IMG/VR virus record: IMGVR_UViG_2713896908_000007
Source of the DNA: a virus
Lineage: Duplodnaviria > Heunggongvirae > Uroviricota > Caudoviricetes
Strand: one strand, 5' to 3'
Length of the DNA stretch: 64,000 bases
Below are positions 10,379 to 21,618 of the stretch, in pieces; within the stretch, counting starts at the first letter, position 1; every line of letters begins with the position of its first letter. The notes under the pieces were generated by a model. It ran no database searches and was not told the DNA's origin. It worked only from the letters and a program-made list of their open reading frames with translations. Both the position numbers and the translations under genes were made by a program.

Positions 10379-11521
10379 TTATCCAAACCAATTTTCTAGA
10401 ACATTTTCAAATTTATGGGTAACTTGCCACCATAAATAGTTCTCTAATACATATTTCTTTCCGTTATTTGCAATTTGTTCTAATTTTTCGGAGTGTAATG
10501 TTTCATATATATCACTAGCTAAACTTTCTGGCAACATTGGTTCATTTATATGAAATCCTGTATGGTTATTTTTTACAAATTCAACCATTCCACCTCGAGT
10601 GCTAACTAAAACGGGTTTTCCTGCCCCCATAGCTTCTATAGCAACCATGCAGAACGGTTCTTGAAACTGAGATGGGATTACAACTAGATCGGCTATAGGA
10701 TAGTAACGGTACATATCATCTGGTTTTACCCCGCCAACAAGATGACAACGCGAACCAATAGTTCCAGCAAGTTCCCTTACTTGTTTTTGATATGCAGCTT
10801 TTTCTCCTTTATCTTTATTATTGTAGTCACCAACAACTACAAGTTCTATATTGTCACATGATTTTATCAATTTTTTAAACGCTTGTAATAGTAAAACAGT
10901 CCCTTTTTCAGGGGAGATCCTTCCCGCATAAAAGATAACTTTTTTCTCAGAGGGAATGCCTAAATCTTGTTTTGTTAGCGGGGGTAGCCCTTTATCTAGA
11001 TTGTGTGGTTCTGTACCATTAGGAACTATACAAATTTCAGCGTCAGGAAGATGTTTTTCATAAAAATCCTTTAAATACTGACTTGGAACAAGCATTTTCA
11101 CATTGCTATCTAGCCCTTTCGGTGTAAAGGCATTATGCATATGCATTATCATTTTTGCGTCAGGAGCTTTCTCTCTAATTTGACGATAAAGTTTCATGCT
11201 GTTATGAACAATAATAATGCTATCGTTTGTGATATTGAAATCTTTAGCAATGTTTAACACTCGTTGTGAATATGGAATAGGATCTATTCTGCTCCATTTT
11301 TGAAATATCCGTTTATAAAGACGGCTAAACCCTATTCTATGGATAGAGCATCGCTCATTAACAATATCTTTTTCTGAGAAACCATCCTCTCGAATGCATG
11401 CTATACGATTTGGTATTCTTGTTCTCTTTGCGACTTGATATATCCAAGTTTCAACAGCTGCTGCGCCACGAGGTGGTATTGAAAATATTGGTGTAACTGT
11501 AAATATTAATTTGTCAATCAT
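10379..11521 (-). CDS. Glycosyltransferase, GT4/GT1-fold (380 aa)
   Basis: EPFCMVAIEAMGAGKPVLVSTRGG motif typical of GT4 enzymes; ATG 11521 with AAGAGGA 9 nt upstream; AT-rich. Confidence 0.85.
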   Translation of the reverse strand: MIDKLIFTVTPIFSIPPRGAAAVETWIYQVAKRTRIPNRIACIREDGFSEKDIVNERCSIHRIGFSRLYKRIFQKWSRIDPIPYSQRVLNIAKDFNITNDSIIIVHNSMKLYRQIREKAPDAKMIMHMHNAFTPKGLDSNVKMLVPSQYLKDFYEKHLPDAEICIVPNGTEPHNLDKGLPPLTKQDLGIPSEKKVIFYAGRISPEKGTVLLLQAFKKLIKSCDNIELVVVGDYNNKDKGEKAAYQKQVRELAGTIGSRCHLVGGVKPDDMYRYYPIADLVVIPSQFQEPFCMVAIEAMGAGKPVLVSTRGGMVEFVKNNHTGFHINEPMLPESLASDIYETLHSEKLEQIANNGKKYVLENYLWWQVTHKFENVLENWFG

Positions 11522-12065
11522 GAGCAACTATCCTCTTATAATCTTTTTCCTTTAAATGTTTTTTTGGGGTTGCGGGAGAGCCCGCATACATTGTATTAGC
11601 AGGAACATCAGTATTTACAACGCTATTTGCAGCTATAACACTATTGTCTCCTATTTTTACACCTGGTAGCACAGTTGTATTTGCCCCAATCCAAACATTA
11701 CGGCCTATTTTTATTGGAGCGCAAATTGTTTCTTTGGGACGTTTGCTTGGTGTTAGTGGATGCGTGACAGTTGTTAATACAACGTTGGGGCCAATGGCAG
11801 AGTTACATCCAATATCTATTGTTTTTGCATCGAGAAAAACACAATTTGCGTTAATGAAGACCTTTTTATCAATAATTATATTGCCATTCTCAAAATAAAA
11901 TGGAGCTGTTATTGTTGAGTCTTCACTTACTTTAACTCCTGTTTTTTTTAATGTGATTAATTTTTTTCTTTTTGAGATCAAGGTATAATTAAATATATGT
12001 CTTGCTTTCTTTGCTTTCTTTTTTTGAAAAATTATATAGAAATAATATGTTAGCAAATCAAACAT
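11514..12065 (-). CDS. Hexapeptide-repeat O-acetyltransferase (WbbJ/LacA-like, 183 aa)
   Basis: Left-handed beta-helix hexapeptide repeats (IGRNVWIGANTTVLPGVKIGDNSVIAANSVV); stop overlaps glycosyltransferase start in ATGATTGA. Confidence 0.8.
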   Translation of the reverse strand: MFDLLTYYFYIIFQKKKAKKARHIFNYTLISKRKKLITLKKTGVKVSEDSTITAPFYFENGNIIIDKKVFINANCVFLDAKTIDIGCNSAIGPNVVLTTVTHPLTPSKRPKETICAPIKIGRNVWIGANTTVLPGVKIGDNSVIAANSVVNTDVPANTMYAGSPATPKKHLKEKDYKRIVAHD

Positions 12066-12089
12066 TGTTGTTTTACTTCCATTTAAAAT

Positions 12090-12356
12090 TTAACTATCAA
12101 ATGTGGCTCCTATTTCTCGCATTTTGTTAAGTATGATGTTTATTTCATTGCTACCGAGAGAAGTTTGGGCAGCTATGAAAAAAAGTATGTGCAATGACAT
12201 AGATCTGTTATTTTCTTTGTTTATATATTTTCTCCACTGGCTATCGCTGCTGACCCCGGCTAGTTCTGCCATTTGATTCCCTGTATACCCAAGCGTTTCT
12301 TTGAATTGACGCAAATCTTGTGATTTGGGGGGGGTGTAGTTGTTTATTAACCTCAT
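12090..12356 (-). CDS. Small HTH-like protein (88 aa from ATG 12356; track ORF extends to TTG 12419)
   Basis: Segment LGYTGNQMAELAGVSSDSQWRKY resembles an XRE-type helix-turn-helix; AT-rich; start uncertain. Confidence 0.35.
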   Translation of the reverse strand: MRLINNYTPPKSQDLRQFKETLGYTGNQMAELAGVSSDSQWRKYINKENNRSMSLHILFFIAAQTSLGSNEINIILNKMREIGATFDS

Positions 12357-12494
12357 ATTAAACCCATTATTGGTAAGCTTTCGTTGGTGTAATGGTAGCA
12401 CCAATGGGGCTGCTGTCAAGCGTCTTTTCTTTATAAATATAGGGAGCCATCAAAATCTGACATTAATTATCTATCGAAATATTTTGAATGACTG

Positions 12495-12520
12495 GTGAGA
12501 AGTTACTTTGCATACCATTA
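12495..12520 (+). promoter_or_regulatory. Candidate late-promoter motif (GAGAAGTTACTTTGCATACCATTACC) upstream of lydA
   Basis: Recurrent AGTTACTTTGCAT-type motif, also upstream of lyz. Confidence 0.35.
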
Positions 12521-12546
12521 CCTCCTGACAACGTAGGAGGGAACTT

Positions 12547-12876
12547 GTGCTTGACACACAGGAATTAGCTCCAGTTGCTATTGCGCTCCTGCTTTCAGTA
12601 ATTGGTGGGATAGGCACGTTCCTGATGGATGTCCGAGACGGTCGCCAGTCTGGCAATTTGTTGGGATTGGTTACGGAGATCTTTGTTGCAGTGACAGCTG
12701 GCGCGGTGGCGTACCTATTGGGGCAACACGAGGGCTGGGAGTTATCAATTACGTACTTAATGGTAACGATAGCCAGCAATAACGGTCATGAGGTGATTTC
12801 AGGGATGAAACGAGTGAATATCGATAGCATTCTGAATGTTCTTACAAGTTTGGTGAAAAAGGGAGGCGGGAAATGA
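12547..12876 (+). CDS. lydA: Holin LydA-like (109 aa, GTG start)
   Basis: AGGAGG 6 nt upstream of GTG 12547; hydrophobic helices (VAIALLLSVIGGIGTFLM, IFVAVTAGAVAYLLG); heads the lydAB-darA operon. Confidence 0.7.
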   Translation: MLDTQELAPVAIALLLSVIGGIGTFLMDVRDGRQSGNLLGLVTEIFVAVTAGAVAYLLGQHEGWELSITYLMVTIASNNGHEVISGMKRVNIDSILNVLTSLVKKGGGK

Positions 12877-16342: not shown

Positions 16343-17446
16343 TTATTCCCACTCTTGCAGGAAACGCTGACCGTACTGGTCGGCTACCAGCAGTGCAGCA
16401 TAAACCTGATCTGGCGTTGCGCCGCCAGGCATGTTGTGGATGGTTTCACCTTCTGCACATGCCGCTTCTGCGACAATCCGCATTTTCGCCGGGATATCTT
16501 CTTTAATATCCAGTTGTGCCAGGGTAATTGGCAGGCCGACAGCATGGCACAGCGCAGCTACGGTTTCGATTTCTTCAACTGGTGCGTTTTCCAGAACCAG
16601 TTGCGTCAGCGTACCGAATGCCACTTTCTCACCGTGATAATAGTGATGCGCATCCGGAATGGCCGTCAGGCCATTGTGCACCGCGTGCGCCGCCGCCAGG
16701 CCGCCGCTTTCAAAGCCCACGCCGCTCAAATAGGTGTTAGCTTCAATCACACGTTCCAGCGCCGGAGTCACCACATGCTGTTCAGCGGCAAGCATCGCTT
16801 TTTCGCCTTCTTCCAGCAGGGTGTTGTAGCACAGTTCAGCCAGAGCCAGTGCTGCCTGAGTACATTTACCGCCCGCCATCGTGGTTGCGCCGCTGCGGGA
16901 ACAGGCACGTGCTTCAAACCAGGTTGCCAACGCATCGCCAATACCCGCCGCTAACAGACGTGCAGGTGCGCCAGCAACAATTTTGGTATCCACAATGACG
17001 CGTTCCGGGTTGTTTGGCAGCATCAGATAACGTTCAAACTCACCATCATCGGTGTAGATAACGGAAAGGGCGCTGCAAGGTGCGTCGGTTGAGGCAATGG
17101 TTGGGGCAACTGCAACAGGAACGCCCATAAAGTGTGCCAGTGCTTTGGCTGTATCGAGGGTTTTACCTCCGCCGATTCCCAGAATTGCGCTACACTGAGC
17201 ATTCTCTGCAATACCCCGCAGACGATCGATTTCATTTTGCGAACATTCACCGCCGAACGGGGCAATTTCTACCTCTATTCCAGCATCTTTAAAACTTTTC
17301 TCAATATTAGTTTGAGCAAAACCTAACACAAATTTGTCACCTACCACCAACCAATGTTCTGCCAGCGGTTTCAGGTATTCACCCAGGCGATTAATGACAT
17401 CTGCGCCTTGGATGTATTTACCCGGTGATTGAATGATGCGGTCCAT
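16343..17446 (-). CDS. gldA: Glycerol dehydrogenase (GldA/DhaD family, 367 aa)
   Basis: Full-length iron-containing alcohol dehydrogenase fold; N-terminus [30 protein letters not shown] and [14 protein letters not shown] motif; AAGGAG 5 nt upstream of ATG. Confidence 0.9.
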
Positions 17447-19892: not shown

Positions 19893-20771
19893 GTGAAAAG
19901 AATTATTCCTGATAAAAAATGGTTAAAAGAAGAAAGCAGTAAGCGACAAGTGCCATCAGAATGTCCCTATGCAAATTCATATCGATGTCCTAGATATCAC
20001 GAAAGTGTTATTTTGTTCTCACAGATGCAAATGATTGATGGCATGTCATATAATAAAGAGAAGGAGTTGAAACAGTTCTGGGAGAGAACCGACCTCTCTT
20101 CTTTATGTAATGGAGAAACCCCGTTGGTCTCAAAAAATGATAAAGGCGGGATTTTCTCTATAGATAATTTCTGTCCAGAAATATCGTTTAGATATTTAGG
20201 TTACTATGCAGACTATATGCTGAGATACATTGATGAAGATGCTCACACTATAGGGTATGGCATAGCTAAAAGAGATCAGAAAGAAAATGATTGGAAGTAT
20301 GATTGGTCCGAGGTCAATGCTGTTTTCTATGAGGATTGTTACCTCTTTGAGAGAGTTAAACAATTCAATAAAGAACTTCATGATAGTTTCTTTAAAAGAC
20401 TACATCCGAATATTGTAATGCAAATAAGTAGAATGGATAAGTGTTTGGACTCAAATGACCCAACCGGTGTTTTGCATGCGGCATCTAATATTCTAGAAAC
20501 AATGGCTAAAGAAATATTAGATGATCCAAATGTATTAAATAAATCGTTTGGCTCTTTTTTTGAGAAGTTTAAAAAAGAGTCAAAGTTGCCGTTAGGGTTT
20601 ATTAATGCAGTTAAAGATATTTATGACTTACGTAATAAAATACCTACTGCTGGTCATGGGGGGGTGGGGATGCCTGGGTTATCTTTATCTGATGCCATAA
20701 TGATTGCTGCATCAACAAAGGCTATTGTAGAGATTGAGTACAGAAACATTGATGTGGCTGCTATTGATTGA
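19893..20771 (+). CDS. AT-rich hypothetical protein, possible abortive-infection-type protein (292 aa)
   Basis: Low-GC Lys-rich ORF with own upstream AT-rich region and AAGGAG; C-terminal DIYDLRNKIPTAGHGG resembles Abi/HEPN-type R..H motifs (weak). Confidence 0.55.
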   Translation: MKRIIPDKKWLKEESSKRQVPSECPYANSYRCPRYHESVILFSQMQMIDGMSYNKEKELKQFWERTDLSSLCNGETPLVSKNDKGGIFSIDNFCPEISFRYLGYYADYMLRYIDEDAHTIGYGIAKRDQKENDWKYDWSEVNAVFYEDCYLFERVKQFNKELHDSFFKRLHPNIVMQISRMDKCLDSNDPTGVLHAASNILETMAKEILDDPNVLNKSFGSFFEKFKKESKLPLGFINAVKDIYDLRNKIPTAGHGGVGMPGLSLSDAIMIAASTKAIVEIEYRNIDVAAID

Positions 20772-20835: not shown

Positions 20836-21618
20836 TTAATCACTTTCTACCTCTTCCGTTGAGTTTTCCAATGCTGCGCGACACAATTTCCTGGCATTGG
20901 TTATAGCCACACTTTTTACCTCATCCGTCATTGTACAGGTAATGTACTGATCGAGTTCTTCAGCTCGGATGATGCTTTTCCCAATCATAAACTCTATTTG
21001 CCAGAGCAGATCGGCATCCATCGTCAGTATTTCAGCCTGGCCTTCTGGGCCTGCGGGGAAGCAAACATAAGACTGTTTGCCCAGGCCGATAACTCGACAA
21101 CTTGCTTCAAGAATTGCACGCTTGAGGTCTGACTTTGTAACTGAAACAGGTTGATTTTCACCTGTGATTACGCCGTTGGCATGGACGTGGAAGGGCATGT
21201 AGCTTGAAATTCGCTCTACTTTCCATACGCCAGCAAGCGATCCTTCATGCAGCACAATGGGGGTAACCGCGAGTTTCATCTCACCATATAACTGCTGGCA
21301 GATAGCTGGATTGCTGAATACATCCAAAGGTTCACACTCAAACAGCGGTGCAATCTGCATGAGGTCCATCATGGTCATACCAGGGGTACGAGCAGTAATG
21401 AATCTGCGCATTCCAGTATCCATTGTGCGCCAGATAGCTACACCATGCTTTTTGCTCACTTCTTCAGTAAAGCCAAGGTGGCACATGATGGTTTTTTCGA
21501 TAGCCAGATCAGAGATAGAAACCTTTTCGCCTGGCACGCCATCATTATTGATGGTCACTTCGACACTCTGGCCATTACGTAGGCGGTATTGAATGGTTTT
21601 AGTATTTTGTGCTGTCAT
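20836..21618 (-). CDS. Hypothetical protein (260 aa)
   Basis: Long ORF with no recognised motif; lies in accessory island between ssb and gldA. Confidence 0.55.
   Translation of the reverse strand: MTAQNTKTIQYRLRNGQSVEVTINNDGVPGEKVSISDLAIEKTIMCHLGFTEEVSKKHGVAIWRTMDTGMRRFITARTPGMTMMDLMQIAPLFECEPLDVFSNPAICQQLYGEMKLAVTPIVLHEGSLAGVWKVERISSYMPFHVHANGVITGENQPVSVTKSDLKRAILEASCRVIGLGKQSYVCFPAGPEGQAEILTMDADLLWQIEFMIGKSIIRAEELDQYITCTMTDEVKSVAITNARKLCRAALENSTEEVESD

Follow-up and report, generated by a model that had tools for sequence, protein, structure and literature searches.

A WaaK-family glycosyltransferase and a hexapeptide acetyltransferase in place of the Cin inversion region of a P1-type phage-plasmid: a candidate lysogenic-conversion cassette

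IMG/VR virus record IMGVR_UViG_2713896908_000007, a stretch of 64,000 nt that is called the window here in its entirety and to which all window coordinates refer, represents a P1-type phage-plasmid whose closest matches are plasmids of Escherichia albertii (99.9% identity), with 98%-identical variants in E. coli and E. fergusonii. Where P1 carries the cin recombinase gene and the invertible C-segment, the window has an island of three minus-strand genes that encode an XRE-like small protein, a hexapeptide (LbH) sugar O-acetyltransferase (AcT) and a glycosyltransferase (GT) of the WaaK family, whose canonical members act on the outer core of lipopolysaccharide (LPS). We propose, with moderate confidence, that these genes form a lysogenic-conversion (moron) operon that would remodel the LPS of the host cell. 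LPS conversion by temperate phages is well known for the O-antigen, via gtr and oac, and is in kind nothing new; what the window may add lies in the generalization of the cassette and in a possible conversion at the level of the core.

RESULTS

The preliminary description of this DNA, made from its letters alone, had noted a three-gene minus-strand operon directly after the fibre chaperone gene, AT-rich against the backbone and standing where P1 carries cin and the C-segment, and each of these points held. The list of open reading frames (ORFs) and Pfam recover the operon at that place, in the order R, S, macro-domain ORF, tail-fibre chaperone, three minus-strand genes, LPdar region, lydA, lydB, hdf and darA; the P1 order for comparison is lydA, LPdar, lydC, cin, cixL, Sv', U', U, Sv, cixR and Sc, the interval between Sc and lydA thus containing Sv, U, U', Sv', cixL, cin and lydC. 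By blastn, P1 homology ends at about 6961, just beyond cixR, and restarts at 12487, so that about 5.5 kb of P1 have been replaced, and the island fills the cin side of the replaced stretch. The right junction (12487..12876, plus strand) brings back the P1 backbone, first the LPdar late promoter region and then lydA (12547-12876; Pfam LydA/LydB). The GC fraction is 0.27-0.39 over 10250-12350 against 0.43-0.57 in the flanks (reference value about 0.48), which makes the island the lowest-GC 2 kb of the 64-kb window; with the gene set confirmed as well, the observation is genuine and goes well beyond what chance would give. Of 476 flank-matching P1-type plasmids of PLSDB, 13 (about 3%) carry the island; these carriers come from E. 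albertii, E. coli and E. fergusonii of birds, livestock and people. It also occurs in 10 of 5,426 complete E. coli genomes, every time on a plasmid, and in none of 50,697 deposited phage records.

The GT gene (10379..11521, minus strand) encodes 380 aa from the ATG at 11521, the likely start, which matches the PGAP annotation in relatives; the first in-frame TTG lies at 11527. The product matches Pfam Glycos_transf_1 (3.5e-37) and scores 657.9 bits against NCBIfam PRK15484 (LPS N-acetylglucosaminyltransferase; cut-off 618), residues 3-381 aligning with profile positions 1-379 of 380, and the runner-up NCBIfam family stays below 100 bits. Aligned to a GT4 structure, the C-terminal EX7E motif of retaining GT4 transferases (EPFCMVAIE) and the nucleotide-sugar loop GRxxxxKG (GRISPEKG) are intact. 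Over its full length the protein shares 61% identity with the WaaK encoded in the E. coli R2 waa cluster and 55-56% with its Salmonella counterpart; as the Salmonella and R2 enzymes are themselves only 57% identical to each other, the mobile clade to which the GT belongs lies inside the known range of the family. The earlier assignment to GT4 enzymes of LPS synthesis is upheld by these results.

Like canonical WaaK (RfaK; the outer-core alpha-1,2-N-acetylglucosamine (GlcNAc) transferase of Salmonella enterica and E. coli R2, which uses UDP-GlcNAc to glycosylate O-2 of the terminal glucose of the outer core), the GT is a protein of about 380 aa with the GT4 fold and the EX7E motif. Canonical waaK adjoins waaL: in E. 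coli R2 (L037) it stands behind a waaR-like GT8 gene, as waaR-waaK-waaL, and in Salmonella (L039) and E. albertii (L053) the order is waaZ-waaK-waaL. The gene in the window, by contrast, lies outside a waa cluster, between tfa and lydA on a P1-type phage-plasmid, and is coupled to an acetyltransferase gene. All relatives closer than the waa-cluster enzymes (66-92% identity) are mobile: a 92%-identical copy on a phage-plasmid with a P2-like tail, a 73%-identical copy in a Salmonella islet behind two small leader genes, a 70%-identical copy in an islet adjoining lysC, a 69%-identical copy convergent with a tfa gene (L021) and a 68%-identical copy, very common in Salmonella, in a prophage region. 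In a neighbour-joining tree these mobile GTs of phage-plasmids, prophages and islets form a separate clade that is sister to the WaaKs of E. coli R2, Citrobacter and Cedecea, with Salmonella RfaK outside. By every sequence test, then, the GT is a WaaK-family enzyme, yet it is no waa-cluster orthologue; the sugar that it would transfer, predicted from homology, is most likely alpha-linked GlcNAc. The 50,697 deposited phage genomes gave no WaaK homologue; in that search, 55% identity or more to the GT was reached only by two Salmonella whole-genome contigs and by a 1.7-kb record that carries no annotation.

In Salmonella enterica, WaaK paralogues located elsewhere than in the waa cluster are widespread (L036 8001-9143; L019 7001-8143; L041 6001-7140). 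One, present in 2,509 blocks of the collection, adjoins an integrase gene and a macro-Caudo_TAP (mig-3-like) gene in a prophage region; the leader pair precedes another, which is part of a thrS/umuDC islet. We found no literature on these paralogues. The waa cluster of the E. albertii type strain (NBRC 107761, L053) has homologues of waaB, waaJ, waaY, waaZ, waaK and waaL that are 58-73% identical to those of Salmonella, and it corresponds to no E. coli core type. That the plasmid might provide a GlcNAc step lacking in the core of its host was considered and, for E. albertii, rejected, as the waa cluster of the type strain includes waaK.

The AcT gene (11514..12065, minus strand) encodes a protein of 183 aa of the Maa/LacA/NodL type, with Pfam matches to Hexapep (7.4e-15) and Hexapep_2 (1.1e-11). 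The catalytic histidine is kept, VTHPL aligning with TGHPV of LacA (His115; 1KQA alignment). The protein missed all the equivalog cut-offs against which it was scored, with 103.4 bits for Maa (cut-off 314), 101.8 for LacA (347) and 70.7 for WbbJ (243). Its stop codon overlaps the ATG of the GT gene by 8 nt (11514-11521), an overlap that the preliminary description had already reported and that stands with the ATG as GT start. The AcT homologues form a prophage gene family. A tail-fibre chaperone gene immediately precedes the homologue and converges on it in Mu-like prophages of Salmonella, where three insertion sites are occupied, in a Mu-like prophage of Enterobacter (there too with fibre, macro and tfa genes), in a Serratia prophage and in a Cedecea remnant. 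One Morganella homologue has no obvious phage context. The preliminary description had called the pairing of the two enzymes typical of O-antigen or LPS core clusters, and this does not hold, the closest homologues of both being in prophages or islets. The homology search against rfb and waa enzymes that it had suggested gave a divided answer: the GT is of the WaaK family, and the nearest relatives of GT and AcT lie outside such clusters.

The first gene of the cassette (12090..12356, minus strand) encodes an XRE-like protein of 88 aa that matches phrog_20491 (4.6e-25) and is the probable controller of the operon. The ORF list has it as 12090-12419, from a TTG; because all homologues align from the ATG at 12356, we take that as the start, and the TTG at 12419 is the beginning of a predicted -35 hexamer, TTGACA, and not of the ORF. 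The small ORF with likeness to helix-turn-helix (HTH) proteins that had been described earlier is thus present, but it is shorter than listed and its match to Pfam HTH_31 (E 0.008, 16.9 bits against a cut-off of 27) falls below threshold. There was no NCBIfam match to the protein and no precomputed Pfam domain in 102 homologues. An AlphaFold2 model built with 40 homologues has five helices and a mean predicted confidence (pLDDT) of 86.3, and its top matches in the PDB are all XRE-type HTH proteins (Aca1, the N-terminal part of CapH, SinR, C.BclI/C.Esp1396I), at weak scores (E 0.026-0.3, TM 0.4-0.6). With the C-proteins of restriction-modification systems, Aca1 and CapH the protein may share a small five-helix XRE-type fold, as the model suggests, and it is likewise the first gene product of an accessory operon; it differs from them in that its likeness to Pfam HTH families is below cut-off, and DNA binding is a putative role.

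Upstream of the XRE-like gene lies the best sigma70-like promoter of the region (12392..12419, minus strand; TTGACA, 16 nt, TACCAT with TG; 10 of 12 positions matched), a predicted element of which both hexamers are kept in the 98%-identical E. coli variant despite a differing spacer. A 13-nt inverted repeat around the -10 hexamer, 77% complementary, is an operator candidate too weak for use. Of the 13 sites in the window that resemble C1 operators, none lies within 10-13 kb of the cassette. In the coding strand of the XRE-like ORF there is a C8 homopolymer (12326-12333) that is C7 in the plasmid of E. albertii RM10705 (L001) and in an E. coli relative (L035), where it frameshifts the ORF at codons 8-10. 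The difference could reflect slipped-strand on/off switching or an assembly error, the latter being possible because other frameshifts in those and similar assemblies fall at unrelated homopolymers.

The position of the XRE-like gene recurs. Among 80 IMG/VR loci on viral contigs it directly precedes a gene for a glycan-modifying enzyme in 45, and in 44 of these 45 the enzyme gene is convergent with a gene of the tail-fibre module. By Pfam, the 45 enzymes comprise 30 of Acyl_transf_3 (Oac/OafA-type), 12 LbH proteins like that of the window, one GT25 and two copies of a DxD protein of no assigned function; LbH and WaaK are combined only in the four P1-like loci. Among described phages, Serratia phage BZS1 has the XRE-like homologue directly before a gene for an OafA-type LPS O-acetylase convergent with the fibre gene, and in Burkholderia phage PE067 the homologue precedes two genes, the second of which is annotated as an acetyltransferase and is convergent with the fibre gene. 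In many relatives, 14 of the 80 IMG/VR loci among them, the XRE-like gene is itself directly preceded by a gene for a protein of 51-58 aa with an N-terminal coiled-coil-like segment and one transmembrane helix (for example L019 6465-6620, L021 1738-1914, L015 3790-3963, L017 3294-3458 and L013 8566-8715); this partner has no Pfam match and is missing from the window.

On the mobile elements, purifying selection maintains both enzyme genes. The ratio of nonsynonymous to synonymous substitution rates (dN/dS) for waaK is 0.066 (dS 0.60) against the copy of phage-plasmid pEA32_4 and 0.15 against an E. coli copy, and that for the AcT gene is 0.14-0.18. By blastn, a 49.5-kb E. albertii plasmid and two assembled contigs, elements that have a P2-like baseplate and an IncFII RepA, carry a counterpart of the stretch 8041-12065 of the window with 85-87% nucleotide identity. 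The shared block holds the last approximately 270 codons of S, the macro-domain gene, tfa, waaK and the AcT gene and ends exactly at the AcT start codon, leaving the XRE-like gene outside, so that two unrelated backbones carry fibre tip, chaperone and both enzymes as a single block. In L066/L068 and L088 (IMG/VR), whose fibre tips share 64-74% identity with the last 200 residues of that in the window, other morons occupy the slot. Among the other copies, the H70 plasmid had seemed to carry a different core GT (annotated as UDP-glucose alpha-1,2-glucosyltransferase), and this was rejected, as it has the same waaK truncated by IS1. In the plasmid of E. coli GmM062 (L003 1-5985), where IS1 truncates waaK, an ars operon follows lydB; beyond IS1, where other relatives have the chaperone gene, are genes for a methyltransferase-domain protein, two glycosyltransferases, an epimerase and an acyltransferase fragment.

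The fibre gene S itself (5337..8855, plus strand) is chimeric, with a P1-like constant part to about 6961 and a distal part that is not that of P1, its last approximately 270 codons (from 8041) lying in the 4-kb block held in common with pEA32_4-type phage-plasmids. No cin gene was found in the window (tblastn with P1 Cin, best E 5.3), which bears out the earlier remark that no invertase gene was seen, and lydC is likewise absent from the whole window. The accompanying remark that no crossover site was seen proved wrong: an exact 26-nt match to cixR, the Cin crossover site of P1, lies inside S (6772..6797, plus strand), and a search of the window that allowed up to three mismatches, or used the degenerate core pattern, gave no second cix. 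The window thus has neither an invertase gene nor paired inverted cix sites. To judge from the sequence, the fibre is locked to one non-P1 tip and the inversion switch is gone. The orphan cixR is a scar by which the disappearance of the inversion system can be dated.

The island shares the address of the C-segment and Cin of P1/P7 and of the G-segment and Gin of Mu: it lies between Sc and lydA, next to an S gene that has kept an exact cixR, and in Salmonella Mu-like prophages the AcT homologue takes the gin position of Mu, with the fibre genes on one side and com/methylase on the other. It is unlike the P1 segment in that the invertase, the second cix and the alternative Sv'/U' set are missing, and in offering a surface-modification cassette instead of host-range switching.

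Downstream of S, the macro-domain ORF (8852..9721, plus strand; Pfam Macro 2.2e-19; phrog_2613 1e-136) and a tail-fibre assembly chaperone gene of the U/Tfa type (9740..10324, plus strand; Caudo_TAP 4.9e-32; phrog_105), a non-P1 allele, both belong to the shared block. The start of the macro-domain ORF overlaps the stop of S, and its C-terminal GAHxH repeats are like those of the fibre tip; the same gene separates fibre and chaperone genes in phage Chuche, in pEA32_4 and in a Mu-like prophage of Enterobacter, and it adjoins the tail-fibre gene in Gifsy-1 and SEN4/5. The protein could be a fibre-associated enzyme or a counter-defence protein. Between the two convergent operons there is an unusually stable hairpin (10335..10375; RNA fold dG -18.8 kcal/mol, z -4.4), followed on the plus strand by UUUGUUUU; the minus-strand form is weaker and lacks a U-tract, so the hairpin is likely the terminator of the S-macro-U late operon. 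A consensus scanner called no terminator in 10250-12600, because the loop exceeds 8 nt, and the support for the hairpin comes from folding. The terminator at 10341..10378 that had been thought to bracket the island therefore exists as a stable hairpin, but it fits the end of the fibre operon better than that of the cassette.

DISCUSSION

In composition and layout the cassette resembles a moron: its GC content is foreign, it has a predicted promoter and, in the hairpin, a predicted terminator, and it is convergent with the S-macro-U late operon. Our current working hypothesis is that the sigma70-type promoter at 12419-12392, outside C1 control, would drive in turn the XRE-like controller, the cytoplasmic LbH O-acetyltransferase and the translationally coupled WaaK-family GT4. 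We infer that the operon would be expressed in lysogens and that the GT would take the LPS core as acceptor, adding a hexose or N-acetylhexosamine to the outer core during its assembly at the inner face of the inner membrane, with AcT O-acetylating the added sugar or a neighbouring one. A lysogen would then show an altered LPS, with changed antigenicity and a changed adsorption of phages that depend on LPS, perhaps the element itself among them. The promoter, the lack of C1-operator-like sites nearby, purifying selection and the recurrence of the architecture beside the fibre genes of temperate phages all lend indirect support to lysogenic conversion as first suggested for these genes, and the recurring slot, with Oac/OafA-type enzymes as its usual occupants, supports a change of the surface that phages meet.

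One part of that suggestion has been weakened. It had been argued that P1 adsorbs to the LPS core and that a lysogen could therefore mask the receptor of its own phage. The P1 S fibre uses outer-core glucose (bioRxiv 10.1101/2022.07.24.501295). In the window, the S tip and the chaperone are not those of P1 and a macro gene has been added, so that the argument, which rests on the P1 fibre, does not carry over as it stands.

Several observations weigh against lysogenic conversion of the LPS core as set out here. The scores of AcT, far under the Maa, LacA and WbbJ cut-offs, leave the choice of substrate wide. Some members of the GT family have been named UDP-glucose alpha-1,2-glucosyltransferase by NCBI (P0028; the pseudogene of L003). 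The E. albertii type strain has a waaK of its own in a Salmonella-like waa cluster, and Salmonella carries the mobile paralogues beside canonical waaK, so that the GT probably has a role other than filling a gap in the canonical pathway, and its acceptor or donor may differ from those of canonical WaaK. The promoter is a consensus match in a region where such matches occur at chance level (10 found, 9.3 expected). Masking of the phage's own receptor is plausible but hypothetical, given the non-P1 tip and the fact that related tips accompany other morons, namely a 264-aa DxD protein (L066) and an Acyl_transf_3 enzyme (L088); tip and enzyme are therefore not strictly coupled. Adjacency to the fibre genes may only reflect a general hot-spot for moron insertion. 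Finally, several of the 14 P1-like copies are damaged in waaK or the AcT gene: waaK has frameshifts in four, there is an IS1 truncation in one, ISKpn26 insertions occur in two, and the AcT gene has 10 gaps in one.

The last point invites the view that the cassette is a decaying, non-functional passenger of the recombination that removed cin and the C-segment. We think this very improbable, since all three ORFs of the window and the catalytic motifs are intact and dN/dS stays at 0.07-0.18 across copies at dS of up to 0.6; the frameshifts, moreover, are spread over different homopolymers, most of them in assemblies that contain further errors of this kind, and many may be assembly errors themselves. 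A better case can be made for cargo that benefits the host, through antigenic change, resistance to serum, bile or antimicrobial peptides, or an effect on O-antigen ligation, with no role in adsorption and with a late-operon end that simply tolerates insertions. The backbone does carry other cargo, such as a gldA-like gene between ddrA and ddrB and, in L003, ars and polysaccharide genes; related tips have different morons; and mobile WaaK paralogues occur in chromosomal islets that have no fibre genes nearby (L007, L019). We nevertheless hold this to be fairly unlikely, considering how consistently XRE-led cassettes converge with the tail-fibre module (44 of 45), that tip, chaperone and enzymes were transferred or conserved together, as a 4-kb block, on unrelated backbones, and that the Oac/OafA-type members of the architecture (Sf6 Oac) are classical receptor-modifying conversion genes.

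The enzymes might also act elsewhere than on the core, on undecaprenyl-carried units of O-antigen or enterobacterial common antigen, on colanic acid or capsule, or on a free sugar or xenobiotic in the manner of Maa/LacA/Vat-type detoxification. The best named matches of AcT are maltose and galactoside O-acetyltransferases, with WcaF, WbbJ and Vat weaker; its homologues usually stand alone, with no GT; GT4 is a broad family; and the host already has a canonical waaK. Since the GT passes a curated full-length WaaK cut-off with the next family far behind and nests beside waa-cluster WaaKs in the tree, and since the 8-nt translational coupling argues for one pathway common to both enzymes, we consider such a target decidedly unlikely. 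The least likely of the readings considered, in our view, is an intracellular conflict or defence system in which GT4 and AcT would keep out other phages by altering a macromolecule of phage or host. It draws on a match of the GT to Pfam PF20706 (GT4 in conflict systems; 48.8 bits, cut-off 26) and on the conflict-related themes of the neighbouring dar region and macro-domain gene. That match, however, is far weaker than those to the generic GT1 family (128 bits) and to WaaK (658 bits), precomputed domains show PF20706 in bona fide waa-cluster WaaK and WaaG as well, and we set anti-phage defence aside because no PADLOC model matched the GT, AcT, XRE-like or macro proteins.

Lysogenic conversion of the LPS core, our favoured reading, has its nearest parallels in the Acyl_transf_3 enzymes of the Sf6 Oac/OafA type and in gtrABC, which are likewise prophage-borne, separately expressed, LPS-modifying sets and change adsorption; in 30 of the 80 viral contigs an Acyl_transf_3 gene even occupies the exact slot of AcT and WaaK, behind the XRE-like gene and convergent with the fibre genes. 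The window cassette contains neither GtrA/B/C nor Acyl_transf_3. Those enzymes are integral membrane proteins that act on the O-antigen at the periplasmic face, whereas the enzymes of the window are predicted to be soluble and cytoplasmic and the GT to be of the core type. WabB of pO157 is reportedly a plasmid-borne LPS core GlcNAc-type transferase, and would likewise be a case of extrachromosomal core decoration, differing in family, in its inner-core side-branch position and in being carried by a virulence plasmid and not by a phage.

To our knowledge, phage conversion of LPS as so far described acts on the O-antigen. In the library that was searched, we found no description of a phage- or phage-plasmid-borne core transferase of the WaaK family, of an LPS glycosyltransferase in P1-like elements, of the pairing of WaaK with an LbH acetyltransferase or of the XRE-led cassette as a general architecture, and a large phage-plasmid survey makes no mention of the cassette genes. 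If our reading is true, a phage outer-core transferase would act on a more conserved layer of the LPS that is the receptor of many phages, including P1, and that affects O-antigen ligation, which makes a shift in phage susceptibility and serology across hosts possible. In the P1 relatives that carry the cassette, the loss of the fibre inversion switch coincides with the gain of a surface-modification operon, a possible trade-off between host-range flexibility and receptor modification that is open to test. In addition, the mobile WaaK clade draws attention to the very common second "waaK" of Salmonella, and the XRE-like gene can serve in practice as a sequence marker when prophages are screened for conversion cassettes.

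It is tempting to speculate further, in a tentative scheme that, taken as a whole, we would sooner expect to fail than to hold. Mu-, P2- and P1-like temperate phages of Proteobacteria might have a common plug-in slot at the far end of the fibre operon, headed by a dedicated XRE-like controller, often with the 51-58-aa membrane partner, into which varied surface-glycan-modifying enzymes would be swapped along with fibre tips and chaperones. The window would then be the first version aimed at the LPS outer core, giving seroconversion and self-exclusion at the level of the core and not of the O-antigen; in this P1 lineage the cassette would have supplanted the Cin host-range switch, and the common WaaK paralogues that Salmonella has outside waa would descend from this system as domesticated remnants.

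Two further features of the window lie outside the cassette. The gldA-like gene, for an iron alcohol/glycerol dehydrogenase, is located at 16343-17446 (minus strand; GC 0.55-0.57) between ddrA and ddrB of the dar region and is also annotated in an E. albertii relative. A second low-GC patch (0.37) directly upstream of ssb holds two ORFs (19893-20771, plus strand; 20836-21618, minus strand) of 292 and 260 aa, neither with a Pfam match.

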